A DNA stretch of 59,241 nt from a virus (taxonomy: Duplodnaviria > Caudoviricetes), in IMG/VR virus record IMGVR_UViG_3300025098_000044, positions 1-59,241 of that record. One strand, 5' to 3'. How positions within the stretch are numbered: the stretch's first letter is position 1; each line of letters opens with the position of its first letter. This document shows positions 18,006-45,590 of this stretch, piece by piece. The notes under the pieces were generated by a model, which searched no databases, was not told the origin of the DNA, and saw only the letters and a list, made by a program, of their open reading frames with translations. A program made the translations under genes and the position numbers.

Positions 18006-20045
18006 ATGAAGAGTACAAATCTAATACTTAATCAAGAACAAGAAGAGAAACTCGTAGAGTATGCTTTAGATAGAGTAGAAAGCCTCGCGGCGGACAATAG
18101 GGAGCGCATACTTAGCGATCAGTTAGCTTGGAAAACTTATCAAAATGACAGAAGTGACCGCCAAGATTTAGATTCTATATATTCTCAGTCTAACACCCCC
18201 GTACCATTAACAAGTTTAGTCGTAGACCACTTTTTAGCTAGAGCCGAAGACGAAATAACCGGTACAAGCCCGTATTTTGAATTTAAACCTCAAGGGGTTT
18301 CAGATACACAAGCGGCCGAAGAGTTTAACAGATACTTCCATTGGAAGTTGGAAGATAAAGGCAGAATTCGTGAAAGATTAGAAGAGAGTTTTCTCCATAT
18401 CTTTTTACAAAGAGCAGCTATATTTAAATCAGTTTACGAGGAAAGAAAGTCAACTTGGTATGATATGGAGCGTAATGCATTGTTCGACAATGAAGAACAA
18501 TCTTTCGTACAGCTTTTAGACATTGGACCAGTAATCGAGGGAGAGACTGAAATGATCCCCGAGATGAACCCAGAGACCGGCGAAATGGAGACCCGTTTAG
18601 CTGACGATCCATCTTTTTCAGTTATCCCAGGTAAACACGAATTTAAAGCATTTCCCCAAGGTGTACCGACTCAACAGATAAAGTACAAAGGTCCCAGGTC
18701 GGTGGTCGTAGATACAGACAGGTTTTTAGCACCTAGTAGTGTAGAACATTTAGAATACGCCGATTTTATTGCCGAACTTTACGACAAAGACTTAAATTGG
18801 TGCCGTGAGATATTCTTGGAAAGAGAATGGTTTTCTTACGCTGATTATGCAGAGGCTGCTAAAAAAGACCCAAATCCAAGAACTAAATCACAAAAGAACG
18901 AGGAATCTAAAGACTCTAAAAAGTTCGATAAGGAAAAAATCCCAATGGTTCCTATTGTGGAATGTTGGATTAGTCGTGATGTTTTAGGTACAGGCGAGCC
19001 TCAAGATTTCTGCGTATTCATAGACACGGAAACTAAAAAAGCTATTTATTACGAGTACACCGCAAAACTGACACCCGACAACCGCCCCCCTTATGTAACG
19101 GTTGCTATTGGTAAAATGCAGAACCGTTGGTGGGGGCCGAGTTTACCTGAGAAAATTAGAGTGTATCAGGAGTACATCGACAAACAATTTAATTCCGAAA
19201 GCTATAGAAACGAGCTTGCGGCTAATCCTATTATAGGAGTAAACCCGCAAGCCGTAGAGGACGAACCCGAAGATGTAGAGCTACATGCGGGTAAGTTATT
19301 TCAACTCAAAGATCAGTATGGTATGGAAGACTTTTTGTCTTTCTCAGCTCTACCTAATATGGATCAGAAAACACAGGAGCTCATAGACTTCGTTTTCGGT
19401 ATGGTTCAGTTGTGGCTTGGAGTTTCCAACATGGCTCAAGGAGATTACCAAGCGTTGTCCCCAGCTAACACGGCAACGGGGGTAGAGGCAACTCTTCGTG
19501 AAGCGTCTAAGATTGGTAGGCGTTGGATGCGTAGAATTGTCCGTGGATTTGAAGAGCATTTAACCAAGCTCATAAAACTTTCTATGGCCACTATGGATGA
19601 GGCTGAGATCTATGAGTATATGGAAGGTGAGGTTTCAGCTTTTGCCGAAATGACTCCCGAAAAAATAGCGGACTTAGAAATGAACTGTAAGGTCATAATG
19701 TCGCAGGACCAAGGTCAACGGGCGATAGAGAAGGCTAACTTAGCTCTCCAAGTTCAAGAGAGGTATTTAGAACATCCTCCCGAAATTAGACCATTCAGCC
19801 GACCAATGTTTAAAAGGATTTTAGATGCCCTAGGGTTTGAAAATATAGATGAATTACTTCCCGAAGCAGCGCCACCGAGCCCAAAAGGCGAAGCCGAGAT
19901 TATGAAACTCATGGCCGACGCACAAGGCGGTGGAGGTGGTGGAGGTGAAGTGCCTCAGGCAAACAATCAAATTGACGCTCAAATACAGGGAATGGGTAAC
20001 AGCAACCCTCAGGGCGAAAACCAATATCAACAACAAACAGGATAA
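18006..20045 (+). CDS. Portal (head-tail connector) protein
   Basis: 679 aa, podoviral portal-like layout with WWGPSLPE, QG...TATGV motifs and Gln/Gly-rich tail. Confidence 0.85.
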   Translation: MKSTNLILNQEQEEKLVEYALDRVESLAADNRERILSDQLAWKTYQNDRSDRQDLDSIYSQSNTPVPLTSLVVDHFLARAEDEITGTSPYFEFKPQGVSDTQAAEEFNRYFHWKLEDKGRIRERLEESFLHIFLQRAAIFKSVYEERKSTWYDMERNALFDNEEQSFVQLLDIGPVIEGETEMIPEMNPETGEMETRLADDPSFSVIPGKHEFKAFPQGVPTQQIKYKGPRSVVVDTDRFLAPSSVEHLEYADFIAELYDKDLNWCREIFLEREWFSYADYAEAAKKDPNPRTKSQKNEESKDSKKFDKEKIPMVPIVECWISRDVLGTGEPQDFCVFIDTETKKAIYYEYTAKLTPDNRPPYVTVAIGKMQNRWWGPSLPEKIRVYQEYIDKQFNSESYRNELAANPIIGVNPQAVEDEPEDVELHAGKLFQLKDQYGMEDFLSFSALPNMDQKTQELIDFVFGMVQLWLGVSNMAQGDYQALSPANTATGVEATLREASKIGRRWMRRIVRGFEEHLTKLIKLSMATMDEAEIYEYMEGEVSAFAEMTPEKIADLEMNCKVIMSQDQGQRAIEKANLALQVQERYLEHPPEIRPFSRPMFKRILDALGFENIDELLPEAAPPSPKGEAEIMKLMADAQGGGGGGGEVPQANNQIDAQIQGMGNSNPQGENQYQQQTG

Positions 20046-20050
20046 CTATC

Positions 20051-20254
20051 ATGGCTAATAAATATACACACTCAAAAGCACCTAATGCTTTCAAGCAAAA
20101 TAGAATTAACAATCGTAAAAAAGGAGCTTCTCTAGAAGTAGTTAAGCGCCAACTTGGGGCTAACTTCGGAAGCTACATCCACCCATTGGGAAAAGGGTAT
20201 GCCGTACTTACCGGCGTTATTTCTAAGACCAATAGAGCTCAATCTGTAGCTTAA
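20051..20254 (+). CDS. Small basic hypothetical protein
   Basis: Follows portal; TAATG coupling to next gene. Confidence 0.65.
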   Translation: MANKYTHSKAPNAFKQNRINNRKKGASLEVVKRQLGANFGSYIHPLGKGYAVLTGVISKTNRAQSVA

Positions 20255-20535
20255 TGAGCGACATCGTTCTATTTGATAAACTTTCCGATGTTAAAAGGCT
20301 TACAACGGATGAGGCTTTTGGGCATCTTGAAAAACGGTTTCAGACCGAAAGAGGAAGATACCTCTCCAGGATGCTTGACCGCGAAACAAGTCCCGAGGAA
20401 ACAATTGCTCTCAAGGCCGTCGTTAACGCGTTGGAAAACTTATCGCCGATGGCTCTCGCGGAGACGGTCATCAAAATAGAATCGAAGAATCTTAAGAAAC
20501 ATAACCCCGAAATGTTTAAGGTTAAAAAAGCGTGA
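20254..20535 (+). CDS. Hypothetical helical protein (post-portal)
   Basis: Coupled to both neighbours. Confidence 0.7.
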   Translation: MSDIVLFDKLSDVKRLTTDEAFGHLEKRFQTERGRYLSRMLDRETSPEETIALKAVVNALENLSPMALAETVIKIESKNLKKHNPEMFKVKKA

Positions 20536-22331
20536 GTACTTATTACGAAGAGAAGGTGGTAGACCCACCAGTGGGTGATCCAATACCTTTTAAATTAAAC
20601 TACTCACCCAGAGCTTATGAGTTACCAGGTCAACCTATCTCGGTAGATAAATCGGGTACAGTTGCGGCTAGACAAGTCGGGGGTGGGGTTCCCCGCAAAC
20701 CTTTTAGGGTTACCGCTATAACCGAAGCCGCCAAACCAGCCACAGTAACCGCGGGAGCTTTACCTGAAAAACCATTTAGTATTTCTGTACTTACCAGTGT
20801 TGACGCTCCTGACTCCGTAACCGTAGTCGCCGCTCCTCGTAAACCAAATACAGTTTCAGTCCAAGCTGATCCTATTAAACCCGCAAGCGTAACTGCGGAT
20901 GCGATGCCTTTTGCCCCTACTTCCGTAGTTGCAGAATCAGATCCTAAAAAACCTATATCTGTAGATGCTGATTATATACCTCATGCACCCGCAAGTGTAA
21001 CTGCGGATGCGATACCTTTTGCCCCTACTTCCGTAGTTGCAGAATCAGATCCTAAAAAACCTATATCTGTAGATGCTGATTATATACCTCATGCACCGGC
21101 TATCGTTGAAGTAAACGCAATGCCTATTGCTCCTGTTGGCGTTGCAGCTTTTTCTGATCCCAAAAAACCTATATCTGTAGATGCTGATTATATACCTTAT
21201 GCTCCTTCATCCGTAGATGCCGATTACATCCCCTATGCACCGTCTGTTGTATCCGTTAATGCAGATCCTAAACAACCTTTAACAGTAGACGCCGATTACA
21301 TACCTTACGGCCCAGCATCAGTTTCAGCTGGCCAGGTACCAACCGTTCCTTCTTTAGTAGAAGCCGGCTTAATCCCCGAAGCTCCATCCACAGTTTCCGT
21401 ACTAGCAGCTCCTAGACAACCTAGCCTAGCCTATGCATTTGAGCCGTTTGTTGTAGAAATAATGGAAACAGAAGCTGAGATTAGGGCTAGACCTGCTAGT
21501 ACGCCCGAAGGAACTGTTGCATTTGGAACAGACACTAAGAAACTATATGTGTTCAATCAAACAGGAATGGATTCATGGGGTGCATTTGCAGAAGACGGTT
21601 TCTTTAGAACATCTGCATATGTTCCAATGAAATCCGCAAGATTTGAGGGACATCCAACTAATGATTACGGTATTGCGACTAATATAAATAGATTAAACGG
21701 TAACACATGGACTAAGGAATCCCCCACCACAATGTCAGGGTTTTTAAAGTTTACCGGGTGGGGAGGTGATCCGTCACCTTTTGGTACTAGTGGATTGCAT
21801 CCGGGTACTACATGGAACCCTGCAAGGGGCTCGTATTCTGATGGATTTCATGTAAACTCATCGGGGCGAGCTTATATGTGGTTTGGAGGTGGTCAACGAT
21901 GGATAACTAAAGACTCTGTTGCTCTTTATTTAGTGCAAAACACTTGGTATCACTTTGCATATACTCACGACGGTTCAACTTTAAGATGTTTTTTAAATGG
22001 AGATGAGGTATTCCCATCAACTCCAAACCAAACTTCTAGAAGGATAGCAATTCCTCAAATTTATGTATCAAAAGGTCGTTGGAATCAATCAATGTTTGGA
22101 ATGGTGGATCAAGTAGCATTTTGGGACAGTGTTTTAGATCAAACCACAATACAGAGTATCGCTAGTGGCGACAGAAACACCACCCTTACATACAATCCGT
22201 TAGCTTACTACTCTATGGATACCGAATCCAACGACACAGTCCCTGATACAAGCGGAAACTCTCAGCCTGACATGTACATGATACAAGACAATGCATCGGG
22301 TGCTGATCTTGTAGAAGAGGAGCCTAACTAG
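20532..22331 (+). CDS. Fibre/receptor-binding protein: ~22 x 12-aa P-x-x-P-x-x-V-x-A repeats plus C-terminal LamG/concanavalin-like domain
   Basis: Repeats in residues ~30-302; NTWYHFAYTHDGSTLRCFLNG...GMVDQVAFWD...PLAYYSMD is a LamG signature. Confidence 0.8.
   Translation: MSTYYEEKVVDPPVGDPIPFKLNYSPRAYELPGQPISVDKSGTVAARQVGGGVPRKPFRVTAITEAAKPATVTAGALPEKPFSISVLTSVDAPDSVTVVAAPRKPNTVSVQADPIKPASVTADAMPFAPTSVVAESDPKKPISVDADYIPHAPASVTADAIPFAPTSVVAESDPKKPISVDADYIPHAPAIVEVNAMPIAPVGVAAFSDPKKPISVDADYIPYAPSSVDADYIPYAPSVVSVNADPKQPLTVDADYIPYGPASVSAGQVPTVPSLVEAGLIPEAPSTVSVLAAPRQPSLAYAFEPFVVEIMETEAEIRARPASTPEGTVAFGTDTKKLYVFNQTGMDSWGAFAEDGFFRTSAYVPMKSARFEGHPTNDYGIATNINRLNGNTWTKESPTTMSGFLKFTGWGGDPSPFGTSGLHPGTTWNPARGSYSDGFHVNSSGRAYMWFGGGQRWITKDSVALYLVQNTWYHFAYTHDGSTLRCFLNGDEVFPSTPNQTSRRIAIPQIYVSKGRWNQSMFGMVDQVAFWDSVLDQTTIQSIASGDRNTTLTYNPLAYYSMDTESNDTVPDTSGNSQPDMYMIQDNASGADLVEEEPN
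20880..21097 (+). repeat. 108-bp (36-aa = 3 x 12-aa) near-perfect tandem duplication
   Basis: ccgcaagcgtaactgcggatgcgat... at 20881 and ccgcaagtgtaactgcggatgcgat... at 20989. Confidence 0.92.
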
Positions 22332-22353
22332 TCTTTAATTAAATAATTTTATC

Positions 22354-23442
22354 ATGAGCACAATATCATCAGTTTTATCAACAGCAAAACCTGTAGACCC
22401 CAACCCCGGATCTCTTTTCTATTTCACCGACACCAATCAGATTGGGATATATCAAGGTAACGGTACTTACTATATGTATAATCGAGACACTCTTGCATAC
22501 TCTTCAGGTGGTGAAGAACAATTAAACTATATTGACGGTTTATTTAGCGACTCTAGCTCAGATTATTATGTATCAACTACACCGAAATTTCATTATGATG
22601 CTGAATTTGTAAACGGTATTGAGCCAACCGCTCTAACAGAGGACTTTGACTTTGGGAGTGAATGGGCTTTTTACACATCCGGAAATAAGGGTTGGAGAAA
22701 CCGAGGGTCGTCTGATAGAGAAATAGCCTCGCCACATGTTTCAATTACTCCGCTTGGAAGGATGCAATGGGATAGTGAATTAAGAGCTGTTTACATAGCT
22801 AGTGGTAGTCTTATTTCGGGACCGGGTAATCCGGGGGATCCTGCAAACTCAAGCTATACTTTTAATGCAGATAAAAAGTGGACAATATTCATGGTCGCAA
22901 TTCCTGCCTCTTCAGGTAAGTTCATGGCGTTTGGTCACTCAAGTAATGGCGACTACTCACCTTTCGCTATTGCTCCGGGGGCAGGTCAAACCACTATGGG
23001 TGGTAAAAAAAATTGGGGCTTGGATGCAAACAATACTCAAGCATCAGATACGATAGTAGGAAATCGTTTGTCGCTTTATGTAGCACAGTGCGAAGGAATT
23101 AATGGATATGCTAATTGGTACACTCCTTCAAGCGAATCTGCTACAACTGATTCTGAAGGAAGGCTTAGACCGCATGTCACAATTACTGCAAATAATTATA
23201 CTACACAAACAAATATATTTGGAACCGGACAGGGTCTTTATGCTAATTCTAATAAGTGGTGTGAAATAATTGTATATGACGGAGATATTACTCAGGAAGA
23301 GATGGATGTAACTACTAGGTATTTGTACAATAAATACACTAACCGCATTCACTCAAATTTTGGGGCTACTAATAAAATTATTTATAACGACCCAACCACA
23401 TGGAAACTATTTAAGAAAAATGTGCACTACACCGCGACTTAA
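22354..23442 (+). CDS. Lectin-like (concanavalin A/LamG-type) virion protein
   Basis: FHYDA...W.N...EIIVYD..IT..E......YL..KY pattern; N-terminal PGSLFYFTDTNQIGIY resembles EGTVAFGTDTKKLYVF in 20532..22331. Confidence 0.65.
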   Translation: MSTISSVLSTAKPVDPNPGSLFYFTDTNQIGIYQGNGTYYMYNRDTLAYSSGGEEQLNYIDGLFSDSSSDYYVSTTPKFHYDAEFVNGIEPTALTEDFDFGSEWAFYTSGNKGWRNRGSSDREIASPHVSITPLGRMQWDSELRAVYIASGSLISGPGNPGDPANSSYTFNADKKWTIFMVAIPASSGKFMAFGHSSNGDYSPFAIAPGAGQTTMGGKKNWGLDANNTQASDTIVGNRLSLYVAQCEGINGYANWYTPSSESATTDSEGRLRPHVTITANNYTTQTNIFGTGQGLYANSNKWCEIIVYDGDITQEEMDVTTRYLYNKYTNRIHSNFGATNKIIYNDPTTWKLFKKNVHYTAT

Positions 23443-23444
23443 AA

Positions 23445-23482
23445 TACAACCACTAGAAATTTACCTTATTAACCCTTATTTT
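23445..23482 (+). promoter_or_regulatory. Late promoter (TACAACCACT ... TATTTT), leaderless start at 23490
   Basis: Motif 45 nt before ATG; -10 box at offset 32. Confidence 0.65.
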
Positions 23483-23489
23483 AAAAACT

Positions 23490-23828
23490 ATGGCAACAGT
23501 ACAAATATCATTCACAGATGCTTCTAATAACGAAACATCATTTAAAGTTTTCAGAAGCGACAACGGCGCGAGCGCTCAAAACGACGATACGAAAAAAATC
23601 GGAGATATAACTTATGTTGGATCCGATTGGCAAATCGCAGCAGCGAATAGCTTTGCTTCCGTAACTTTATATAGTAAACCAGCCTCAGGCTCAGGCCCAG
23701 ATGCTCAGGGACAGCAGTTCTCAGTAAGATATGAAGAAAGTGATTCTGGCGATTATAAATACGGAGTAGTAGCCTCAAACGATATCGGAGATTCAGATCT
23801 TACAGAAAGTTCAGTTGTATCGGTTTAA
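23490..23828 (+). CDS. Single fibronectin type III domain lacking strand A
   Basis: Starts at strand B (VQISFTDASNNETSFKVFRS, cf. LSWTDNSSNETGFKIERS) and ends with F/G strands YKYGVVASNDIGDS. Confidence 0.75.
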   Translation: MATVQISFTDASNNETSFKVFRSDNGASAQNDDTKKIGDITYVGSDWQIAAANSFASVTLYSKPASGSGPDAQGQQFSVRYEESDSGDYKYGVVASNDIGDSDLTESSVVSV

Positions 23829-23843
23829 GGGTAAAATCGTGTC

Positions 23844-24050
23844 GTGGCTAACCCAATTAAAGTATTAACAGGGCCACCCGTTCCCGATATAAATCCAAAC
23901 ACCCCCGCTACTGAATCGGTTAAATCTTACATAGACCGGTTACTTAGCTATTATACTACAAAAACGGATTTTTCGGAAAATTCTACTACGACCACTTGCT
24001 ATGTATTAGACGGTGGCGACTCTGGAAGTCAGCCGTGCGATGATTCATGA
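23844..24050 (+). CDS. Small hypothetical virion protein
   Basis: GTG start, ATGA coupling downstream; ends with an LDGG motif. Confidence 0.55.
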   Translation: MANPIKVLTGPPVPDINPNTPATESVKSYIDRLLSYYTTKTDFSENSTTTTCYVLDGGDSGSQPCDDS

Positions 24051-24280
24051 GTGTGTCCATAAGAATTCGTCGGGATACCGAGGCTCGGTGGCTCGAAAAT
24101 GACCCCGTACCCCATCAAGGTGAGCTGTGTATGGACATTACGAATCATAAAATCAAACTAGGCGACGGCTTCAATGAATGGAGCAAACTACCATACATGG
24201 AATCGAGCGGAGTTGACGCACTCAGAGAAGAGTACGGAAATGAAACCGATTTCACTATTAACTACGAACTGTTTAAATAA
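24047..24280 (+). CDS. Stand-alone Mtd_N / hyaluronidase-N-terminal-like fibre domain
   Basis: IRIRRDT...W...DPV...GE...D....KIKLGDG...W..LPY signature. Confidence 0.8.
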   Translation: MSVSIRIRRDTEARWLENDPVPHQGELCMDITNHKIKLGDGFNEWSKLPYMESSGVDALREEYGNETDFTINYELFK

Positions 24281-24288
24281 TAACTATT

Positions 24289-24927
24289 ATGTCAGACCCA
24301 ACAACAATTTTAGGAAAAGTCGGTAAGAAAGTCGGAGAAGAATTAAAAACCTTCCGAACAACTAGCGACAACACATACGCGACGCAAGTATCATTAGGCA
24401 CAACAGCATCGGTAGCATCTAGTAATGCAGAAGCTATTGTTAGTTTATCAAGCAACATAGGTAGTGTTTCTGGTGTAGCTAACGCTACTAAAGTGTCTTT
24501 AGACAACTACCGTACAGGTAGTTATGTTTTCCAACTTTTAAATGCAACAAGAGCTGAGACTACTGGTGATTTAACCGTAGGAGGTGATCTTACTGTTAAT
24601 GGAACAACCACAACGATAAATACTCAGACACTTGAAGTTGAAGATAACATCATCGAAGTTAACTTAGCATCTGATGGAACAGAAACAGCTCAAACCGCCG
24701 GTATTGAAGTTAACCGAGGAGATGGTGAAGATAAAGCTCAAGTACTTTGGAATGACGGAGACGGAGAGTTTCAATTATTAAAAGGATCTTCCGATGCTTC
24801 TCTTGATGTGGGCAGTGTGGATGCCGAAGAAGTATTAATACCATCAGGCGGTAATATTAAAATAAACAGCGTTTCACTTGGAGATTACTCACTATTCGCG
24901 AGTGCCCTCGATACAGCAAAAGCGTAA
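24289..24927 (+). CDS. Fibre protein
   Basis: LTVGGDLTVNGTTTTINT...VEDNII...AGIEVNRG...W motif typical of aquatic phage fibres. Confidence 0.75.
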   Translation: MSDPTTILGKVGKKVGEELKTFRTTSDNTYATQVSLGTTASVASSNAEAIVSLSSNIGSVSGVANATKVSLDNYRTGSYVFQLLNATRAETTGDLTVGGDLTVNGTTTTINTQTLEVEDNIIEVNLASDGTETAQTAGIEVNRGDGEDKAQVLWNDGDGEFQLLKGSSDASLDVGSVDAEEVLIPSGGNIKINSVSLGDYSLFASALDTAKA

Positions 24928-24930
24928 GAT

Positions 24931-25251
24931 GTGGCTTCGATTCTCGCACAGATCGGTACTAAGGTAGGGACTGAGTTAAAGTCCTTATCTACTCGTATTG
25001 ATAATATTGGGGGTGTCAGTTTAACTGACAATTACTCAGAGCTTACATTTGACGAAGGTCTGCTTACAGCATTGACCACATGGACTAATAGTGGAAAAGG
25101 GACAAAGGTTTCTTCAAAAGCGTTTACATATACAGACGGTAATCTGACAAGCGTAGTCGAAAAAGACGGCTCAGATGTCACTACTCTCACCAAGACCTTA
25201 ACATACGACGCAGAGGGTAACCTTGCATCAATTACGAAGGATTACGCATAA
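24931..25251 (+). CDS. Small virion protein with YD-like beta hairpins
   Basis: FTYTDGNLTSV, LTYDAEGNLASI; N-terminus similar to that of 24289..24927. Confidence 0.65.
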   Translation: MASILAQIGTKVGTELKSLSTRIDNIGGVSLTDNYSELTFDEGLLTALTTWTNSGKGTKVSSKAFTYTDGNLTSVVEKDGSDVTTLTKTLTYDAEGNLASITKDYA

Positions 25252-27632
25252 TGGCACTCACAACTCCATATAAATCTGGCTCAATATCTAGTGTAAATGG
25301 AACTAGTCTAGTAGGCACTGGTATTACATTTGCGTCAACGGATGTTGGTAGGCTTATTATCCTCACCAATGGCAATGGAAAACTTCAGCATAGAAAAATT
25401 GTAACCTATACATCAGCAACAGAAGTTGAAGTTGACCATGCATGGAATACGACTCCTTGGCTTGATACTGTCCAAGATGCTGAACCAAGTACAGGGGATT
25501 CATTTGTAGTTTCTTATCTCCAATCTGACTCTGCATTCACTGGAGAAACTCAAGTTACAGATAGTGGCGAGCAGGTAAGAATTGATGGTATTAATCTTAG
25601 TGGGGGTGCGTATGTTCATTTCACGAATAAGCAAGTAGACCTCAACTCAAGCTATATTAGGATTGGTCTAGGTGCTGGAATGATTTTTGGATGGTATAAG
25701 TACATTGCTGGAGAGGATGCACAAGTTACTGATTCGTGTCATATTATTGATGACTCTCTAGGTGTTGTGTCAAATTATCCTCCCTCGTGGGGAACTGGTG
25801 GCACTGAATTTGGTATGCTCGATATTTATGGAGGTACAATTCTCGTAGATGAAGGCCCAGTCTTTTGGCGATTGTATTGCAATGATGGAGCGAATAAAGT
25901 GCAATCACGAATCATTAATGCCCAATCTTTTGGCGAATATGGTATCGGCTGTCGAGTAGATGGAAATCGCTCAATTTTCATAGCAACCATCGTTGGTACT
26001 AACAATGTTAATAGTGCTTGTAATGCTCGGACTGCGGTGAGTAGGATTTCCATAACTGCGATTGACTCACTTCAAGCAGGGTATGTTTGGTTGCATTCTA
26101 CACAAGGAGGAGCAAGCGGACGATTAATTTTCCCACGATTAAACAGCTTAGACAGAGTAATTCGTTCAAACAACAGCGGAAACTCGGGAAATAAAGTAAT
26201 GGAGGTCATTGCTAAAAAGTCAGAAGTAGACCAAATCCCTGTTTTTATCCAAGGCGGAGGCAGCGTAAATGGAACTCACACTTTTAGATATGGAAACTTA
26301 TTGAAACCTAAATATGTGGATGATTCCAATTCTGTAGTTACAGACACAATCAAAACCGCAGTAATTGATTCGACTGACACTATTGTCGATACCGAAAATG
26401 TTACCACAGGTTCTAGGTCTGAATTATTTATTCGTCATTCTGACATAGCCACAAGGGATGGTAACATGGTGCTAGAGAATAGTGATGGAACTTTACCATC
26501 CTATGTTACAAAATATGCTCCCTATGAGTTAAATAGCTTCTTGTTTGGTAAGCAGATAAATTCTGCAATTGTCACGGCTGAAGATTTCTACGGAACAACT
26601 CAGACATTACTAAATGACCTAGTGCTCACCGAAACTGATAAAGCTACTATTGATGCCTATACAGAAATTGATACACCACAGAAGTTTTACGACAGAGCAA
26701 ATGCCTACCTTTATGACAACTATGCAGGCGAGTCTTCAACTTTGGTGTCTAGGGATGGTAACACAATAAATGCAGGCACTTATGATGTAGTGCTGAGTAG
26801 TTCAGCAACTGAAGTGCTTTCTTTAAGTAGTAACACTCTCACCATTAAGTCATCTGCTTTTATTGGAAACATTACAACAAGCGGAGCCGTAACTTTAGAT
26901 AATACAGATTTCGGAGGCACAATTGTTGATATTAATGGCACGAGGTCATTTGGGTCATATCAGATTAAAAACTTAATAAGTGGTAGTCGTGTACAAATTT
27001 ATAATATTACAACAGGCACAGAGGCTTTTAATAGTATAGTTAACAATGTCATTTTAACTAAAAGTTTTAGCACTGAAATGTCTGAAAATGATGCAATTAG
27101 AATAAGAATTACATATCAAAATTCATCAACTGCAAAAGAACCACAAGAAATCTTAGCAACTTGCAAAACACCCTCTTGGGAGGTTTCCGCAAATCAGCAA
27201 GATGCATTGCAATATAACGATTTCCAACTTGATGGGAGCGAAGTTACAGAAGTTTCTTTAGATTTAGCTAATGGAAAAATTGAAATAGATATTACTGATG
27301 ATGATAACGCTACAACGATTCAAAGGATTGGGGCTTTTTACTATTCGGAATTAATGACTAGTGATGGAATTGCTAATTTATTCGGTGCTGTAAATTGGTT
27401 ATCCGCCAATCAAATTTCCATAGATCAAGACAAGGTTGATTTAAAAATCGACAACAAGAAAAGCGCACCACTAATGCTAACAGGTGGAAGACTTTATAGA
27501 CTAGACGGCTCTACAATTATTTCTAGCACTAGTAATTCGGTTCAAATTGATTACTCACCAGTATATATCACTAATGCTCCATTGATTGAGATAATTGATA
27601 AGAACACAAAACTAATCCCAGCCCTGCTATGA
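25251..27632 (+). CDS. 793-aa beta-rich tail spike/fibre-like protein
   Basis: S/T/G/N-rich beta-type composition; N-terminal GSISSVNGTSLVGTGITF fibre-like motif. Confidence 0.6.
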   Translation: MALTTPYKSGSISSVNGTSLVGTGITFASTDVGRLIILTNGNGKLQHRKIVTYTSATEVEVDHAWNTTPWLDTVQDAEPSTGDSFVVSYLQSDSAFTGETQVTDSGEQVRIDGINLSGGAYVHFTNKQVDLNSSYIRIGLGAGMIFGWYKYIAGEDAQVTDSCHIIDDSLGVVSNYPPSWGTGGTEFGMLDIYGGTILVDEGPVFWRLYCNDGANKVQSRIINAQSFGEYGIGCRVDGNRSIFIATIVGTNNVNSACNARTAVSRISITAIDSLQAGYVWLHSTQGGASGRLIFPRLNSLDRVIRSNNSGNSGNKVMEVIAKKSEVDQIPVFIQGGGSVNGTHTFRYGNLLKPKYVDDSNSVVTDTIKTAVIDSTDTIVDTENVTTGSRSELFIRHSDIATRDGNMVLENSDGTLPSYVTKYAPYELNSFLFGKQINSAIVTAEDFYGTTQTLLNDLVLTETDKATIDAYTEIDTPQKFYDRANAYLYDNYAGESSTLVSRDGNTINAGTYDVVLSSSATEVLSLSSNTLTIKSSAFIGNITTSGAVTLDNTDFGGTIVDINGTRSFGSYQIKNLISGSRVQIYNITTGTEAFNSIVNNVILTKSFSTEMSENDAIRIRITYQNSSTAKEPQEILATCKTPSWEVSANQQDALQYNDFQLDGSEVTEVSLDLANGKIEIDITDDDNATTIQRIGAFYYSELMTSDGIANLFGAVNWLSANQISIDQDKVDLKIDNKKSAPLMLTGGRLYRLDGSTIISSTSNSVQIDYSPVYITNAPLIEIIDKNTKLIPALL

Positions 27633-28105
27633 GTAGGGGGTATGTAGCTTTATTCCTAGATGTGTTGCTCATAATAGCGATGATCCTTCTTACGCAATCC
27701 TGCACGATTTCCCAATGGTATCCCGTTGGCGGAGCAGTTATTGGTGGAGCATCAGGCTCAGTTTTAGGACCCGCTGGAGGTGGGATCGGAGCAGGGGTCG
27801 GATATGCAGGCGGAAAAACCGCACAAATGATGTCTGAGAATGAAGATCTCAAAGAAACCGTAGACGCTTTAACTCACGGAGATGTTTCAAAACTTGTTGA
27901 AAAAGGGCTAGAGTCTCAACAGTCGGGTTTTCAAGAATTTACGGGAACTATAAAAAATATACTAACGGTAGCGGGCTCAGTGCTTCTAGCTTACCTTTGT
28001 ATTCCTATTCTACTTGCTAGGAGAAGCGCCCAAAAGGAAGTTCAGAAATGCGTAACCAAGGCACCGTTCCCAGTAAGACCGGTAAGACCATCCGATCACA
28101 AATGA
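27629..28105 (+). CDS. Membrane protein with N-terminal lipoprotein-like signal, glycine zipper and C-terminal TM (u-spanin-like candidate)
   Basis: Hydrophobic N-terminus ending LLTQS-C; GGAVIGGASGSVLG; TM ILTVAGSVLLAYLCIPILLA followed by RR. Confidence 0.5.
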   Translation: MSRGYVALFLDVLLIIAMILLTQSCTISQWYPVGGAVIGGASGSVLGPAGGGIGAGVGYAGGKTAQMMSENEDLKETVDALTHGDVSKLVEKGLESQQSGFQEFTGTIKNILTVAGSVLLAYLCIPILLARRSAQKEVQKCVTKAPFPVRPVRPSDHK

Positions 28106-28218
28106 AAAACTTTAAATTACTCAAAGACTATTACGGAACATTATCATGCAAAGGGAAACTAATTTTCGCAACAGTGGCACTTGTAGCAGTGTATCTAATA
28201 CTGGACACCATATCATGA
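28102..28218 (+). CDS. 38-aa single-TM peptide (absent from ORF track)
   Basis: MKNFKLLKDYYGTLSCKGKLIFATVALVAVYLILDTIS; ATGA overlaps at both ends. Confidence 0.65.
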   Translation: MKNFKLLKDYYGTLSCKGKLIFATVALVAVYLILDTIS

Positions 28219-28370
28219 CGGACAGCACACCAATCATCGGGATGATCGGCACAGGTCTCTCTTTTACATTAGGCCAGTGGAACGATTTAGTCGGGTTAAT
28301 AGCCGGTGTTTTAACATGTGGCTACATGCTTTGGAAACTTTACAGATTTTATAAAAATGAAGAAAAATAA
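28215..28370 (+). CDS. Holin-like small membrane protein (51 aa)
   Basis: Two hydrophobic segments and a charged C-terminus; start reassigned to ATG 28215 (ATGA coupling). Confidence 0.55.
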   Translation: MTDSTPIIGMIGTGLSFTLGQWNDLVGLIAGVLTCGYMLWKLYRFYKNEEK

Positions 28371-28500
28371 AAAAGAAGAGTTTAAAACTTGTGCAAGATG
28401 CCCTTACCCAAAAGATTGTAAAAAAGAAGGTAAGTGTAAGCTAAGTAAACCTAAAAAGAAACCGGCAAAACCGGGTAGTTTGAAATTCTACAACAGGTAA
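28357..28500 (+). CDS. Lys-rich, Cys4 small protein
   Basis: MKKNKKEEFKTCARCPYPKDCKKEGKC...; start reassigned to ATG 28357. Confidence 0.55.
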   Translation: MKKNKKEEFKTCARCPYPKDCKKEGKCKLSKPKKKPAKPGSLKFYNR

Positions 28501-28538
28501 TACAACCGGTTTTCAGACCCGTATAACATTAGTATTGT
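28501..28538 (+). promoter_or_regulatory. Late promoter (TACAACCGGT ... TATTGT) for scaffold/MCP, leaderless start at 28545
   Basis: Motif 44 nt before ATG; -10 box ends 6 nt before ATG. Confidence 0.72.
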
Positions 28539-28544
28539 ACGAGA

Positions 28545-29594
28545 ATGGAAGAACAAACCGAGGTGGTTGATTCCCCTCAACAAAACGAATTAAATCTTGC
28601 GGATGTGTCTACTGACGACCTTCGACAAGCATTATCAACGCAGCAGCTTCCCGAAGCTACAGAACAGATTGAACAAGCCGAACCTGAGGGGCAACCCCAA
28701 GAAGAAGCGCCCGTTCAAGAAGAACCAGTAGCCGAAGAGCCTCAAGCACCCGAGGAAACGCCTGTTCCCGAGGAAAGTGAAGAGGATAGGTTGGCTAAAA
28801 GAAGGATTAGACCTAAGAGCGAATTAGACCAGCAAGTCATAGATCTTTACAGATCTGAAGGCTTTAGCGGGACATTTGCGGATGCGTCTAGGATTATCTA
28901 CGGCCAAGAAGTTGCACCGAATCAACCAAACCCGCAACCCGCTCAACAATCAACTGAGCAACCAATTTCAAATTCGTATGAAGGGTTGGCGGAGACTCTG
29001 AACGCCGAAATAGCCGAACTTGAATCGGAAGTTACTCAAGCCGCCGATGACTTAGACACGGTCAAAGCTTTGCAGTTGCAAAGGGAGATCATGAAAAAGG
29101 AATTGGAAGTTAGAGATTTAAACTTCAGAAAAGAACGAGCACAAGAAAAAGCATATGAGGCGCACAGCTCAAACCAGCGTAGTAAAGCTCAAGAGAGTAG
29201 GGATCGTGCATTTGAATCTTACCCAGATCTGTCAGACAAATCTACCGTCTACAGAAAAGAGTTCGATGATTTTGTATCTCAAGCTCAAAATGATGCAGAC
29301 TACGAAGCGGTTTTTCAGTCACCAAGGTGGCCGGAAATGATGGCACATGATTTTGCTGCTAGAAAAGGCTACCAAGCCCCAGCACAAAACGCTTCAAATC
29401 CAGCTCCCGAAATACCAAGGCAAGTCAGCCCTCAGATGGGTAATCAAGCTAAAGTATTAACGACAGGACAAACTGCGCAACCCGCAAACACTCAAATAAC
29501 ACCGGAGTATGTTTCTAACAACATCGGTCAAATGTCCAACGATCAGCTTTATCAGCTTCTAGGACACGATGACGGTAGAAAATTCCTCCGTTAA
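28545..29594 (+). CDS. Capsid scaffolding protein
   Basis: Acidic disordered N-terminus, coiled coil, directly upstream of MCP. Confidence 0.75.
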   Translation: MEEQTEVVDSPQQNELNLADVSTDDLRQALSTQQLPEATEQIEQAEPEGQPQEEAPVQEEPVAEEPQAPEETPVPEESEEDRLAKRRIRPKSELDQQVIDLYRSEGFSGTFADASRIIYGQEVAPNQPNPQPAQQSTEQPISNSYEGLAETLNAEIAELESEVTQAADDLDTVKALQLQREIMKKELEVRDLNFRKERAQEKAYEAHSSNQRSKAQESRDRAFESYPDLSDKSTVYRKEFDDFVSQAQNDADYEAVFQSPRWPEMMAHDFAARKGYQAPAQNASNPAPEIPRQVSPQMGNQAKVLTTGQTAQPANTQITPEYVSNNIGQMSNDQLYQLLGHDDGRKFLR

Positions 29595-29613
29595 CTATTA
29601 AATATTAATTATC

Positions 29614-31059
29614 ATGGCTAATAAATCATCAGCAGCAGCAGCACAGTCAGCACCCGGAACTTTCGGTAATGTTGACTTAATGAATGTAAATACTAATTAC
29701 TCAGGAGATATCTTCGGAGATTCAAACTTGCGCACCAGACTCTGGTCCGAGCTTGTAACTCGTGACGCTCGTGAGAAAAATGTATTTTCAAAATTTATCG
29801 GATCCGAAGGATCTGGTTCTCCAGTAGTGGAAAAACGCGATCTTAGCGCAGGCGGATCAGACAAGGTAACTTTTACAACAGTTGCTCCAATTCGTGGACA
29901 GGGCGTTCGTGGGGAAGAAATCCTCAAGAACTCAACTGGTAAGCTCAAATTTGGAACATTTAGTGTTGAAGTTGATCTTATCAGACACGCAGTAGCTTGG
30001 ACACAAGTTATCAAACTTATGCGTTTCACAGGTAAAACCATTGACCAGCTTTCAGCTGAAGTCATGTCCGAGTGGGCAGGACGCACTGAGCAGGATCATA
30101 TTCAAATGGTTCTCCGTGATACTTGCTTGAATGTAGCTACTTCTAACCTTATCTCAGGTTATGGTGCAGGGTCTAATCTTCAATACACAGAAGGTCTTAG
30201 TACTGACATCATTCAGGAAGCTAAACAAGCATTGATCGCCCAAGGTGGTGAGCCAATGAATGTTGGCGGTGATGACAAGACTGAAATCCCCGGTTACTTG
30301 TTCTTCGCACCAGACGCAGTTCTTCGCCCACTTCGTTCAGACCCTGACTACCTCGAAGCTATTTTACAAGCTGACGAGCGTAGCGGTTCTAACAAGTTGT
30401 ACAGCGGTAACTACGCAATGTGGGACGGTAATGTAATTGCTAACCATAATGTGTTGATTGACACAGCCGACGGACGCCAAGGTTCTCCTTTGCTTCCAAC
30501 AGCTTTGACAACCGCGTCTTTTTCTCCAGCTAACGGTGGGAATTTAGATCTTGGTAATGATACATTTGCTAATTTCCTAGGTTTTGACGCTAGAATCCCT
30601 GGCGCAGGCGGAGCAGTCTACAATGTATCCTCAGCTGGGCACTTCCTTATCGTAGCGCCTAACGGATCGTACTCATGCTTCGGTTATGGAAGTAACGACG
30701 GAGCTGCTCTTAAAACTCTCGCTTATAATGACATAAGCGGTGGTCAAGGCTCGAATCAGGAAGCTGATGGGACAGCGTTCCCAGCCGGTTCGATGATCTA
30801 TCAGTGTAACGCTGACGGAACCCCAATCGGATATGCATTGGCAATGGGTAAGAGTGCTTTGTACTACGCTAAAGGTGCAGTATCGAACGAGCAGATCTTC
30901 CATTATGACGATTTCGCAAATAGCGGAAACGAAGCTCACTTGTCAGCCGTAGGTATCCAGTCCGTTTACGGAATGGCTGCTTATCAAGACACCAACGGAA
31001 GAATTCCAGGTGTTCAGCTTGTCGAAGCAGTTCGTCAAATCCCCGGATTTAGCTATTAA
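29614..31059 (+). CDS. Major capsid protein (N4-gp56/DUF4043-like)
   Basis: DLSAGGSDKVTF...GQGVRGEEIL...F...VDLIRHAV motif; preceded by scaffold, followed by a strong terminator. Confidence 0.88.
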   Translation: MANKSSAAAAQSAPGTFGNVDLMNVNTNYSGDIFGDSNLRTRLWSELVTRDAREKNVFSKFIGSEGSGSPVVEKRDLSAGGSDKVTFTTVAPIRGQGVRGEEILKNSTGKLKFGTFSVEVDLIRHAVAWTQVIKLMRFTGKTIDQLSAEVMSEWAGRTEQDHIQMVLRDTCLNVATSNLISGYGAGSNLQYTEGLSTDIIQEAKQALIAQGGEPMNVGGDDKTEIPGYLFFAPDAVLRPLRSDPDYLEAILQADERSGSNKLYSGNYAMWDGNVIANHNVLIDTADGRQGSPLLPTALTTASFSPANGGNLDLGNDTFANFLGFDARIPGAGGAVYNVSSAGHFLIVAPNGSYSCFGYGSNDGAALKTLAYNDISGGQGSNQEADGTAFPAGSMIYQCNADGTPIGYALAMGKSALYYAKGAVSNEQIFHYDDFANSGNEAHLSAVGIQSVYGMAAYQDTNGRIPGVQLVEAVRQIPGFSY

Positions 31060-31132: not shown

Positions 31133-31142
31133 ATATAAAACT

Positions 31143-31499: not shown

Positions 31500-32465
31500 A
31501 TGTCAACCGTTCCACCAAATGCAAACCAAGCTCCTACGGGTTTAAACAGAACGGGGTCGCCGCAAAACCCTTGTGGATCTATAAGGTTTACGGCGTCTCC
31601 TCAAGAGCAAGTTGCACTATCAAATGTAATTGTTTCTCCTAACCAAAGTCCAACGGGTTTATCAGTTTCCGCCGTGTCACCTACTCAAGCCGAAGCTCCT
31701 TCTGGGATCGTAAGTGAGAGTCTTATAATGTTCACAGACATACTTGATCAAATCGCGAGTATGTTAGGTGCAGACCAGTGGGAAGATCTACCAAAAATAG
31801 ATCGGGAAAGAGTTAAAATAGTTGCTAATCAAGCGTACAGAGAATGTTATGCGCCGATCGACGGTCACAGGCCAAGGTGGGCTTCTCGAAAAATGTCCGT
31901 GTCTTTCTTAGAAGACCAACAGTCAGTACGGCTGCCTAAAGATGTAATCGATATTGAAAAAGTACCCGTATTAGCGGGGCATGGGCCATTATCGCCTATG
32001 AATGCGAGGACTGACGAGATCACCGCAAGAAGTCATTATGCTGGAGATTTTAGACCCGTGGGTGGATATCAGGGAAGTTTCCCATCAATCGATATGGATG
32101 ACCCCGAAAAAGAAAGACCTATATGGTATTACATAGATCAAACGGATGAAGGGTCTGATAATTTTATAGTAGTGCCGAGATTAGTTTTATACCCAATACC
32201 CGACAGAACATACACCGTAGATCTAGTGGCTAATATCATGCCCACTTTATTGAATGAAGGAGACAGTCCAAGGTTACCCGGTGACGCAATTTGGGATATA
32301 ATGCTTCCGATAGCTCAATATAAGCTGTTAACCGACCCTCGGTATAACGGGGATAACCGAGAAGTCATTGTACAATCGGCAAGAGAGGCCAGAAGAAAAT
32401 TAAAACATTTCTCTTCACCGCAGAAACAAAGAACTATTAGAATAGTCAGAAGAAGGGGTTGGTAG
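31500..32465 (+). CDS. Head-tail adaptor-like protein with N-terminal extension of strand-A-like peptides
   Basis: MFTDILDQI...NQAYRE...W...LVLYPIPDRTY core typical of podoviral adaptors; N-terminal QAPTGL, QSPTGL, EAPSGI. Confidence 0.65.
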   Translation: MSTVPPNANQAPTGLNRTGSPQNPCGSIRFTASPQEQVALSNVIVSPNQSPTGLSVSAVSPTQAEAPSGIVSESLIMFTDILDQIASMLGADQWEDLPKIDRERVKIVANQAYRECYAPIDGHRPRWASRKMSVSFLEDQQSVRLPKDVIDIEKVPVLAGHGPLSPMNARTDEITARSHYAGDFRPVGGYQGSFPSIDMDDPEKERPIWYYIDQTDEGSDNFIVVPRLVLYPIPDRTYTVDLVANIMPTLLNEGDSPRLPGDAIWDIMLPIAQYKLLTDPRYNGDNREVIVQSAREARRKLKHFSSPQKQRTIRIVRRRGW

Positions 32466-42976: not shown

Positions 42977-45178
42977 ATGGCTGACATAAGAATTAACTGG
43001 GAACCTCCCATAGACAAATCAATAGTAGATTCGATATCAATTTATAGATATGCGGGGGAAACATCCGATTGTAATATAATCCTTAGTGACGGGGTTTTAG
43101 TTGTTGAAAATTTAGCTGCCGACTCAAATAATTATGATGATCTAGGTATAGTTGATTCAAACCACTATAGTTACGGTGTGTTTTCTAAAAATGTTACAGG
43201 CTTCTCACCTTGTGCTCATGCTAGTCTTTCTTTAGTTCCTACGGTAGACGGGGCTCCAACTGATTTAACAGCCGTTTATGTTGCAGCCGCACCGGTAGAA
43301 GGGCCAACTAATATAATCCCCACACTTGAGGTAGCGCCGAAATATGGGATTGATACGGGTGTTTTTGTTTACCCATTATTTTTAACTGAAGCGGAGTCTA
43401 AGTATTACGATTCTCAAAACGGTGGAACTGGAACAGGTCATACAATGACTTATAATTCCGTGACTTATTATATGCCGGACAATGGTAGCACTCACGCCGG
43501 TACGGTGGCACCTGTAGGGGTGGCTATAAATGGTATTGAATTTAATTATGCTCAGATCGTAACTGGGTTTGAATATGGCCGTAAACCAACCAATAATCAA
43601 GGGCCGACATCACTTACTCTCAAAGTCGATATGGACGAAGATGGGTTTTATGCTGATGTCGACCTCGATGACAATGATAATTCGGTAAATGTTGCACCCG
43701 ATGCAAACAGTGCTCCTACCGATTTAACATCCACAGAACAAGCAACCGCCCCAGCGAGTGGGCCATCCGATTTAGGAACCGTCGCGAGCCCTAATGAAGC
43801 TCCTTCTGCTTTGGGGACAACGGCGAGCCCTAATGAAGCTCCTTCGGATTTAAGCACCACCGCAAGTCCTAGTGAAACACCTTCGGATTTAAGCACCATT
43901 GCAAACCCATCGCACAGCCCTATTAATTTAACTTCTGTTGAAGAAATATTAGCTCCAACTTTCGGACCGACTGATTTAATTACCACAACTTCTCCGGGGT
44001 CTCAATCTTCGGCGGATTCTTTTTCAGACTTACTTTATCCAATACCTGGGGGAATTATAAACGGGTTTTATGAAATGTACACGGGTCAAGGGGTGTTAGA
44101 AATTACGGCAACCACCGCTACCTGGGATGATGGTCTAGGGACGAATGTAGTTATCTGGAGTCAAAGTGGTGGGGATAGCCTTGCAACTACGACTAACTTT
44201 CTCGCGGGTTGGAATATTACAGCTTCAAACTACTTAAATGGTGCCTATCAGGATGTAACTATTTCCTACACCGCTACAAACCCTGAAGCTCCTTCCGGTT
44301 TAAGTACCCTTCTCGACGCCGATGAGGATGGTCACTATGCTGATGTAGACCTGGATGACAACGACAGTAGTACGGGCTTATACCCCGATAATGTCGAGCT
44401 TACTTATAATGGTGCTTTTACCTCAACTACGCCCGAGCTTCGTTACATACAAGGATATGGCCGTATAAAGAAAAATGGCGATACCCCGATGAATGGTGGA
44501 ACCTATATTTATATTATACAAGGTCAGACGGTTACTTTTACAAATGACACGACCAGTATGTTTTATCTCAGAAAACAAAACGATAGCGAAAATTTACTTT
44601 CAATAATGGGCCGACTCGCTCCTTCGAACACAGGCAGTTATACTTTCAACGAATTGGGTGACCACGGGTTCTCTACATCTAGTGTTGGGTCAATAACCCC
44701 AAGATTTAGGGTTGTACCGGAAACCGCCTTACTCGACACATTCGATGTTTTAGACCAGGGAGCAGCAGCCGGTCAAAATTTCGCGGGTAACTATAATTGG
44801 GATAATTACGAAAATAACCCTTCATCAATTGGTTGGTTACAAGGCATAGTGGATCACGGTAATACTGCAGGTCTTACCATTGTAGGAACAGTACCGTCGG
44901 GTTATTCAACTACACACGGGGCTATCATCTATAGAAAATCGGGTACAGATACATCCTCAAACGATGCAGATGCTGGTTTATTTAGATTTGAAACTATTAG
45001 CAACGGACAAGACACTAAGAAGTATCTTTATGCTTCTTTCGGGAGTGGGTCTTATAATAATCAGAAATTTTTTATTTACGAAATCACCGATCAAAGACCC
45101 TACACATATGGAGAGGCTCTTCCGAGTTGGTTCATAAGTGAACTAGCGGCAGAAGGTTACCATATATCATACACCTAA
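42977..45178 (+). CDS. Mosaic fibre: N-terminal FN3 lacking strand A, ~11 P(S/T)xL(S/T) peptides, two DxDEDG-x-YADVDLDDND motifs, C-terminal beta domains
   Basis: IRINWEPP...YSYGVFSKNVTGFS; 13-aa repeats at ~43712-43990; acidic motifs at ~43625 and ~44312. Confidence 0.72.
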   Translation: MADIRINWEPPIDKSIVDSISIYRYAGETSDCNIILSDGVLVVENLAADSNNYDDLGIVDSNHYSYGVFSKNVTGFSPCAHASLSLVPTVDGAPTDLTAVYVAAAPVEGPTNIIPTLEVAPKYGIDTGVFVYPLFLTEAESKYYDSQNGGTGTGHTMTYNSVTYYMPDNGSTHAGTVAPVGVAINGIEFNYAQIVTGFEYGRKPTNNQGPTSLTLKVDMDEDGFYADVDLDDNDNSVNVAPDANSAPTDLTSTEQATAPASGPSDLGTVASPNEAPSALGTTASPNEAPSDLSTTASPSETPSDLSTIANPSHSPINLTSVEEILAPTFGPTDLITTTSPGSQSSADSFSDLLYPIPGGIINGFYEMYTGQGVLEITATTATWDDGLGTNVVIWSQSGGDSLATTTNFLAGWNITASNYLNGAYQDVTISYTATNPEAPSGLSTLLDADEDGHYADVDLDDNDSSTGLYPDNVELTYNGAFTSTTPELRYIQGYGRIKKNGDTPMNGGTYIYIIQGQTVTFTNDTTSMFYLRKQNDSENLLSIMGRLAPSNTGSYTFNELGDHGFSTSSVGSITPRFRVVPETALLDTFDVLDQGAAAGQNFAGNYNWDNYENNPSSIGWLQGIVDHGNTAGLTIVGTVPSGYSTTHGAIIYRKSGTDTSSNDADAGLFRFETISNGQDTKKYLYASFGSGSYNNQKFFIYEITDQRPYTYGEALPSWFISELAAEGYHISYT

Positions 45179-45204
45179 AGACCAACTGATTCGCCAGCAG
45201 ATAT

Positions 45205-45242
45205 TACAACCGCTTTAAACTAACCTTAAACTCAAATATATT
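45205..45242 (+). promoter_or_regulatory. Late promoter (TACAACCGCT ... TATATT), leaderless start at 45249
   Basis: Motif 44 nt before ATG; -10 box ends 6 nt before ATG. Confidence 0.72.
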
Positions 45243-45248
45243 CAAATC

Positions 45249-45590
45249 ATGGCAAATGTACTATTAAATTGGACAGCTCCCGCGGATACATCTAATATCA
45301 CGGGCATCGTAATCTTAAAAAAATCCGTATCAGCGGGCTCATCCGTTCCATCATGTGGCGATTTTATTCCAGATGAAAAAATTAGAGGTGCCAACACGGC
45401 AGCCGACTTAACGGATAGCACTGTTTCTCAAGTAGGCTCGGATATTACCGACCCGGCTACTGTCGCGGCAAATGGTTCCGTTACTGAAACTGGTGTAACG
45501 GCTGGGAGCTACTATTACGCAGCATTTTCTTACAACGCGGCGGGATATTCCCCTTGCGATGTGACGAATTCCGAGCTTGTAATTTCTTAA
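45249..45590 (+). CDS. Single fibronectin type III domain lacking strand A
   Basis: Starts VLLNWTAP (strand B); ends YYYAAFSYNAAGYS (F/G strands). Confidence 0.78.
   Translation: MANVLLNWTAPADTSNITGIVILKKSVSAGSSVPSCGDFIPDEKIRGANTAADLTDSTVSQVGSDITDPATVAANGSVTETGVTAGSYYYAAFSYNAAGYSPCDVTNSELVIS

Follow-up and report, generated by a model that had tools for sequence, protein, structure and literature searches.

Tandem strand-A-like repeats and strand-A-less FN3-like proteins suggest a possible split-domain docking system in an uncultured marine phage

Donor-strand complementation and exchange operate in chaperone-usher pili and also in type V pili, TasA and archaeal threads. In the pilus systems, an Ig-like beta-sandwich is made one strand short; a second polypeptide completes it with an amphipathic strand, and a fibre of beta-sandwich beads results. 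Here we describe a comparable arrangement in a 59,241-nucleotide (nt) stretch of DNA, a whole contig (IMG/VR record IMGVR_UViG_3300025098_000044, hereafter the window), which derives from an uncultured marine phage of the Caudoviricetes and is present in marine metagenome runs. Its first module, module 1, comprises a 599-amino-acid (aa) fibre protein with 21-22 tandem units resembling strand A of fibronectin type III (FN3) domains and, close to it, a stand-alone 112-aa FN3-like protein that lacks this strand (Table 1). As in the pili, the sequences thus contain a subunit that is one strand short and a separate polypeptide with a fitting amphipathic strand. Pilins, however, lack the C-terminal strand G, whereas here it is the N-terminal strand A that is absent, and each pilus subunit carries a single donor extension, whereas the docking that we propose for this phage would use 21-22 tandem donors on one separate scaffold. 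A chaperone and an usher are not expected in a phage, and Pfam and PHROGs searches revealed none among the ten open reading frames (ORFs) of module 1 and its neighbourhood (18006-25251), the ORF at 45249-45590 and ten further ORFs (25251-45178); consequently, this phage system falls outside the chaperone-usher family.

Other known systems share parts of this design. In the tandem beta-zipper formed by bacterial fibronectin-binding proteins with F1 modules, a repetitive and probably unstructured string likewise provides one strand per module, but those modules are covalently linked, complete and host-derived, with the string being a pathogen adhesin, whereas the phage modules are free, incomplete and encoded in the same genome as the string. 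SpyTag/SpyCatcher (a split CnaB2 domain) and FN3 fragment complementation also rely on a peptide of ~13 residues that corresponds to one strand, with the rest of the domain supplied separately. Both, though, are laboratory constructs, and SpyTag forms an isopeptide bond, in contrast with the natural multivalent version proposed here, which shows no sign of a covalent link. The accessory Ig-like and FN3 domains of phages (Hoc-type or appended by frameshift) are, as the small protein may be, FN3-type virion modules that are probably surface-exposed and serve adhesion or stabilisation; nevertheless, the known ones are complete and either fused in cis or bound through other surfaces, whereas here strand A has been lost and orphan arrays of it are present. 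Finally, triple beta-spiral and triple beta-helix shafts likewise combine a short repeat containing a turn proline or glycine with a globular tip, but their repeats measure 8 or 15-20 residues, have no likeness to strand A and lack any strandless partner, as opposed to the period of 12 and super-period of 36 found in this fibre. Among the titles and abstract openings returned by a full-text literature search, none joined donor-strand complementation, strand complementation or strand augmentation with phage FN3 or Ig-like proteins.

The 599-aa protein is most likely a receptor-binding fibre of the virion. A preliminary description of this DNA, made from the sequence, had counted ~22 tandem 12-aa units in it, and this count holds: 21 units stand in exact register (nt 20691-21446) and are preceded by one more, at aa 32, displaced by two residues. 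Their consensus is P-x-x-P-x-S-V-x-A-x-x-x, with P4 and an A or V at position 9 conserved in 21/21 units and P1 and V7 each in 19/21. Residues are small or hydrophobic at positions 5, 7, 9 and 11 and polar at positions 6, 8 and 10, the amphipathic pattern expected for an edge strand. No other six-frame ORF of at least 90 aa in the genome contains the motif P..P..[VLI].[AVS] twice or more, which excludes chance as the origin of the array. Four full-length homologues (807-838 aa, 38-66% identical) have the same layout; three of them align without gaps over the tract (alignment identities of 64-65% and 39%), with invariant prolines, and the fourth is shorter by exactly 36 aa, equivalent to three units. 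In all the homologues, three unit types return every 36 aa, a PKKP unit being followed by two of the PxAP type. A single-sequence scan of IMG/VR with the 599-aa protein gave no relative, and an Atlas search with its residues 30-310 gave no usable match.

At the nucleotide level, Tandem Repeats Finder detected a period of 108 with 3.0 copies between 20879 and 21202. What had been taken for a recent 108-bp duplication turned out to be an identity of 82 nt between two adjacent 108-nt units, which points to gene conversion more than to a fresh duplication; conversion fits better than a net gain of units, as the homologues that align without gaps, down to 38% identity, have equally many units. The accompanying idea that fibre length is set by repeat number is weak as well, with three homologues having the same count and only one having 36 aa fewer. 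A contig from one metagenome run (X6) omits exactly 108 nt, or three units (20906>21015), with 83 nt that match on either side of the junction. This may be a shorter allele or a collapse of the identical repeat by the assembler, and it was not used as a length variant.

AlphaFold2 modelling of the whole 599-aa protein gave a mean predicted local distance difference test (pLDDT) score of 34, with 22-37 over the repeat tract, although with an alignment of five rows and a monomeric input this low confidence says little about the tract. The neck that follows the tract is the most conserved segment and the only one modelled better. A likeness of this neck to Mtd_N was considered and discarded, as it has neither a match to PF18454 nor any similarity to the Mtd_N-positive 77-aa ORF of the window; the sole match in the neck region (aa 297-373) is a sub-threshold one to Collagen_trimer (E 0.16). 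The laminin G (LamG) lectin that the preliminary description placed at the tip corresponds to a Laminin_G_3 match above the Pfam cut-off, and this domain is also present in the fibre homologues; its role as a lectin, that is, sugar binding, is presumptive. Metagenome contigs from four runs leave the window sequence at 21587-21590, directly after the neck, from which we infer that the LamG tip is swapped among co-occurring strains while stalk and neck are retained, the usual mosaicism of receptor-binding fibres.

The small protein of module 1 was modelled with a mean pLDDT of 92.8 as a beta-sandwich whose first strand spans residues 2-9. The closest solved structures were V-type Ig domains (best Z 9.3, Foldseek E 2.6e-3); since a Z of 9.3 is little above the background of 7-8 stated for the structural tool, the fold is only generically Ig-like. 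In VIA-align comparisons, considering the rows whose target was a single V-type domain numbered from 1, residue 1 of the model aligned with target residues 13-19, after strand A. Pfam contained no family for the protein at E<=0.1, and the threshold for fn3 (PF00041) was not reached. Judged by its family profile, the protein is nonetheless clearly kin to fn3, because this profile matches fn3 tandem arrays: built from 11 homologues, it retrieved 558 proteins at E<=1e-3. The majority are multi-copy arrays, two of which are matched by Pfam fn3 with E-values of 2.5e-62 and 1.9e-43. The family also showed a weak match to strands F-G of a titin FN3 domain (E 0.0048). Among the 150 profile matches listed, 22 were small stand-alone proteins, and in four longer ones the domain starts at residue 1; the rest were multi-copy arrays. 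All 24 small or N-terminal-domain representatives that we retrieved begin no more than five residues from strand B, and ten homologues of 112-116 aa each begin with MATVQI. The earlier view of an FN3 domain that begins at strand B is therefore sustained by the position of model residue 1 relative to V-type domains and by the profile kinship with FN3. A single-sequence scan of IMG/VR with the 112-aa protein gave no relative. The conserved N-terminus of the small protein was also considered as a signal of an interface, and dropped when the same block proved to be a signature of the whole fn3 subfamily.

The multi-domain relatives of the small protein indicate what it is missing. Searching 12 related fn3 tandem arrays with the small-protein profile (hmmsearch) gave 81 domain matches starting at profile position <=6, of which one, an artefact at a cut N-terminus, was dropped. 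In all of the 80 valid internal copies, a strand-A segment lies directly ahead of the residue that corresponds to Met1 of the small protein. It contains P..P..[LIVA] within the 16 residues before that point in 71 copies, and in the remaining nine strand A is of the AP..L type, with a single proline or an extended A-B loop. In its canonical form, P-A-A-P-S-N-L-T-A-T-A-V(-S), the segment has 12-13 residues with P1, P4, L7 and A9; at the level of such alignments, the repeat unit of the fibre is of the same length and spacing as the strand-A segment absent from the small protein. A matrix derived from 76 distinct canonical segments assigned at least 8 bits to only 18 of the 17,345 twelve-mers of the proteome, including five in the 599-aa fibre protein and six in a 733-aa protein described below. 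According to both the model and the array comparison, the 112-aa protein is not a seven-strand sandwich including strand A. The order of elements in natural fusions agrees with this picture, with strands B-G coming first and orphan A units after them. In protein P0016 the C-terminal half of an FN3 domain is directly followed by ~12 units, in P0073 a strandless FN3 at residue 1 is followed by two units, and the 733-aa ORF shows the same order. In these fusions the orphan units stand right behind strand G, at the place of the next domain's strand A, and have no B-G body after them.

An IMG/VR scan with a 25-row alignment of the small-protein family yielded 28 loci, comprising 21 stand-alone and seven embedded copies. 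Strand A is missing from all 21 stand-alone copies, which have an in-frame stop 1-18 codons upstream and no strand-A motif between this stop and the start, whereas all seven embedded copies keep it; across these loci, the loss of strand A is a family trait of stand-alone copies. The stops bear on another explanation, in which the small domain would be joined to the upstream structural protein by frameshift or readthrough and the end of the upstream ORF would supply strand A. Programmed events of this kind join Ig-like domains in some phages, and at one locus (L002, 1050-1110) a strand-A-like motif closes the upstream ORF and is followed by TAA, seven in-frame codons and then the ATG of the small gene, an arrangement that may be the relic of a split complete FN3 or a read-through site. 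In the window, by contrast, the ORF upstream is in another frame and ends without a strand-A motif, a stop lies in frame three codons before the ATG at 23490, and a 47-nt spacer bearing a conserved promoter-like motif follows the 362-aa ORF. These stops and the spacer led us to reject joining for the window. With the same kind of stop at all 21 IMG/VR loci and an invariant ATG and Met-Ala start, we consider it extremely improbable as a general explanation.

The combination of strandless domains and orphan strand-A motifs occurs elsewhere in the same genome. Seven of the nine motifs of the 733-aa protein of module 2 are spaced by 13-16 aa between aa 244 and 341, and the domain at its N-terminus and the 113-aa protein encoded after it are paralogues whose alignment starts at residue 1 (E 1e-7). 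This 113-aa protein represents a second family, with 25 homologues of 103-113 aa (all 15 aligned begin with MANV or MSNV). In an hhalign profile-profile comparison, the alignment of the two small families begins at residue 1 and covers their full length (probability 93%, E 2.5e-7). The only IMG/VR relative of the second family, L034 (3529-8655), has two tandem small strandless genes. Upstream of them are the gene of a 658-aa protein, which has a strandless FN3 at its own start, and before it a 753-aa ORF carrying 11 strand-A-like motifs. In addition, a 321-aa ORF of the window has an N-terminal extension with three such motifs, which is absent from its homologue in locus L005.

Association between small genes and arrays was also found in other phages. 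L001 keeps the gene order of the window and has the second small gene directly upstream of the module. In L003, whose small protein is 42% identical and whose genome is otherwise different, the small gene comes directly after that of a 937-aa protein with ~12 P-x-A-P-x-Q-L units at 12-aa spacing. At six of the 21 loci (L011, L013, L014, L020, L022 and L024), one of the two large ORFs closest upstream of the small gene carries a proline-periodic array. Over the 20 non-redundant loci, such arrays occur in 7/34 of the ORFs in this position as opposed to 0/49 of the other large ORFs (Fisher p 0.0013). In seven control loci, 2/38 control ORFs were flagged, for a PPxP tail and a collagen-like tract, which are not strand-A arrays. 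The anticipated co-occurrence of arrays and A-less FN3 genes across phages finds support in the enrichment in upstream ORFs and in its presence in two families, but it fails at 14 of the 20 non-redundant loci (15/21 with the duplicate), where no array is detectable within 8 kb, three of them being cut short upstream; the array is therefore not obligatory for the small-protein family. Many of the array-less loci contain scattered single strand-A-like motifs (44 in 64,953 aa), which may belong to complete domains.

In L003/L011, L014, L020, L024 and module 2, the small gene directly follows the one that carries the repeats, which is the classical position of fibre assembly genes relative to fibre genes. 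The small FN3 might accordingly be an assembly chaperone, comparable to pilus chaperones or tail-fibre assembly proteins, that caps the strand-A units by beta-augmentation during folding or mounting of the fibre and is then released instead of becoming a virion component, an alternative that shares all the evidence of sequence complementarity with permanent docking. We find it improbable. Pfam and PHROGs gave no match to an assembly-protein family, the small gene does not follow the fibre gene immediately in module 1, where the 362-aa gene separates them, and the strandless domain is also the N-terminus of the 733-aa virion-type protein, which argues for a structural role.

The simplest reading of these data is the docking of beads on a string by strand complementation in trans, because the pattern of the unit, its equal length, the loss of strand A, the genomic pairing and the order of the fusions all fit it. 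We put it forward tentatively, as plausible but short of probable, with binding, geometry and stoichiometry extrapolated from sequence comparisons. In this reading, the fibre has a short N-terminal anchor, a stalk of 21-22 units, the neck and the exchangeable LamG tip, each stalk unit being equivalent in sequence to an FN3 strand A plus the A-B turn. The 112-aa protein, seemingly transcribed from its own promoter-like element, is an FN3-type beta-sandwich made without strand A. An orphan unit would be placed antiparallel beside strand B of one copy of this protein, with the side chains of V7 and A9 sealing the open edge of the sandwich, and the proline-punctuated string would thereby be dressed in FN3 'beads'. 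Twelve extended residues measure ~4 nm, roughly the length of one FN3 domain. The same logic would hold for the pair of 733-aa and 113-aa proteins and for the three strand-A tags on the 321-aa protein, which suggests that docking of modules on tags is general in this group of phages. A more far-reaching version, in which a clade of marine phages would place such split-FN3 tags of 12-13 residues in any virion protein (21-22 in the fibre stalk, nine on the 733-aa protein and three on the 321-aa protein encoded after the capsid gene), each recruiting one free FN3, appears more doubtful to us; if it were true, the number of tags would set fibre length, stiffness and surface valency, at a cost of ~36 bp instead of ~280 bp per domain.

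Several points weigh against docking. The split-FN3 stalk already proposed in the preliminary description has gained from the logic of the sequences, its recurrence and the fusion order, but the binding of units to the small protein, and with it a beaded stalk, is a prediction. Arrays are absent from most of the loci, as described above. The conserved N-terminus of the small protein offers no special evidence of an interface and is partly conserved at the nucleotide level. The 36-aa super-repeat is conserved and the sole length difference among homologues is exactly 36 aa, which also fits the period of a threefold shaft. Phage fibres are usually trimers, so that three bare strings with 21 beads each make an unusual picture. 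Lastly, an isolated sandwich without this edge strand may be stable by itself. A complex prediction combining tract residues 112-171 (four alignment rows) with the 112-aa protein (11 rows), run with no controls, gave scores of 0.01 and 0.00 and was counted neither way.

Some of these points would be expected if the repeat tract formed the shaft alone, as a trimeric beta-structure or a stiff proline/beta stalk, and the strandless FN3 proteins were separate accessory or decoration proteins that bind elsewhere, on capsid, fibre or tail, their genes being linked only as late structural genes from FN3-rich ancestors. The chains of a trimer could return to the same face every three units, in keeping with a three-unit super-repeat (PKKP / PxAP / PxAP) that is position-conserved across the homologues and whose only indel is 36 aa long. 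Small genes without an array (14/20 non-redundant loci) agree with such independence, as does the fact that Ig-like domains are common accessory modules on phage virions, and the promoter-like motif that the small gene shares with the ORF before the capsid gene would fit an abundant decoration protein. On the other hand, this explanation does not account for the loss of strand A in every stand-alone copy as against its retention in every internal copy, nor for the exact match of the unit to the missing piece in length and pattern. The 12-residue period also departs from those of known trimeric shaft repeats, the inward-facing residues are small (V, A, A), and AlphaFold2 gave no confident fold for the tract, an argument of little weight given the five rows and the monomer. 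Overall, we see an independent shaft as a serious alternative but a rather unlikely one.

If the docking is true, it would be the first donor-strand-type assembly in a phage virion known to us and a natural counterpart of the engineered peptide-tag/catcher pairs. One scaffold chain would template identical beta-sandwich beads in a defined number. The docking would also account for a small gene family that recurs without annotation in marine viromes, represent a very cheap way to encode a long fibre and provide modular tag/domain pairs, possibly orthogonal to each other, such as the two families in this genome. Even without binding, the strict loss of strand A in stand-alone copies and the orphan strand-A arrays stay as unexplained regularities worth structural study.

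The small gene had also been credited with its own late promoter. A recurrent motif, (A/T)TACAACC, is indeed present 45-46 nt before the ORFs at 23490, 28545 and 45249 (the second of which, with the motif at 45 nt, immediately precedes the major capsid gene) and 71 nt before the ORF at 534, but its count is not above chance, with no over-representation of the 8-mer (3 matches vs 1.78 expected), and its role as a promoter is presumptive. A scan for the sigma-70 consensus found 14 sites, compared with 21.5 expected from shuffled sequences, and gave no support for a classical promoter. The motif occurs upstream of the small gene in five of the 23 loci listed (L001, L004, L005, L006 and L020), and other lineages have different conserved words at this place. 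A dedicated promoter for the small gene thus seems plausible. At the other side of the start codon, the first 24 nt of the small gene are identical or differ by one base in seven loci (the window and L001-L006), although the proteins are only ~40-50% identical, and variant contigs in three runs part from the window directly after 23534. This nucleotide identity could reflect either a constraint at the nucleotide level or a recombination junction.

Table 1. Coordinates of the features discussed, in positions of the window
Feature	Position	Strand	Description or basis
Structural block		+	Includes the 3825-aa ORF, portal, major capsid protein and 1382-aa ORF
Replication block		-	Family-A DNA polymerase and helicases
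3825-aa ORF	6517-17994		Structural block; sole domain found is LPD38, near the C-terminus
SU10-type portal	18006-20045		Structural block
599-aa fibre protein	20532..22331	+	~30-aa N-terminus, strand-A-like repeats, conserved neck, LamG tip; ORF listing, homologue layout
Repeat tract	20625..21446	+	Unit at aa 32-43, then 21 x 12 aa in register (aa 54-305)
Neck (aa 297-355)	21420..21596	+	Most conserved segment; invariant columns; only part of the AlphaFold2 model with pLDDT 59-76
Laminin_G_3 / concanavalin-A-like domain (aa 393-541)	21708..22154	+	Pfam PF13385, E 8.5e-12, 45.9 bits, cut-off 27.6
362-aa ORF between fibre gene and small FN3 gene	22354..23442	+	No family match; conserved in L001
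ATACAACC motif	23444..23451	+	46 nt upstream of the small FN3 gene at 23490; promoter-like
Stand-alone FN3-like / Ig-like protein, 112 aa, starting at strand B	23490..23828	+	AlphaFold2, structural alignments, homologues
Major capsid protein, 481 aa	29614-31059		Phage_capsid_3 match only over aa 64-288
N-terminal extension of the 321-aa ORF (31500-32465)	31524..31724	+	Three orphan strand-A-like motifs: aa 9-20, 48-59, 64-75
1382-aa ORF	34284-38432		CBM_5_12 carbohydrate-binding module
733-aa protein, module 2	42977..45178	+	Strand-A-less FN3 at aa 1 to ~88; nine strand-A-like motifs
TTACAACC motif	45204..45211	+	45 nt before 45249, the start of the second small FN3 gene; one-base variant
113-aa stand-alone FN3-like protein, second family, from strand B	45249..45590	+	Follows the 733-aa ORF

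The fibre and small-FN3 genes of module 1 are placed between the portal gene and the capsid genes. No close relative was found among deposited phages: a tblastn search with the portal against 50,697 phage records gave no match, and the capsid protein gave only matches of 20-23% coverage, to Ralstonia phages. The strand-A-like twelve-mer with the top matrix score of the whole proteome is found in this capsid protein, at aa 292. It stands at the start of the C-terminal part of the protein, which has no family match; this could represent an additional Ig-like domain or one more tag. Behind the small gene of module 1, the regions 24047-24280 and 24289-25251 contain an ORF of 77 aa with an Mtd_N domain (E 1.2e-11), a fibre-like ORF of 212 aa and an ORF of 106 aa whose RHS-repeat match is below threshold, which suggests that further parts of the fibre are divided among small genes.

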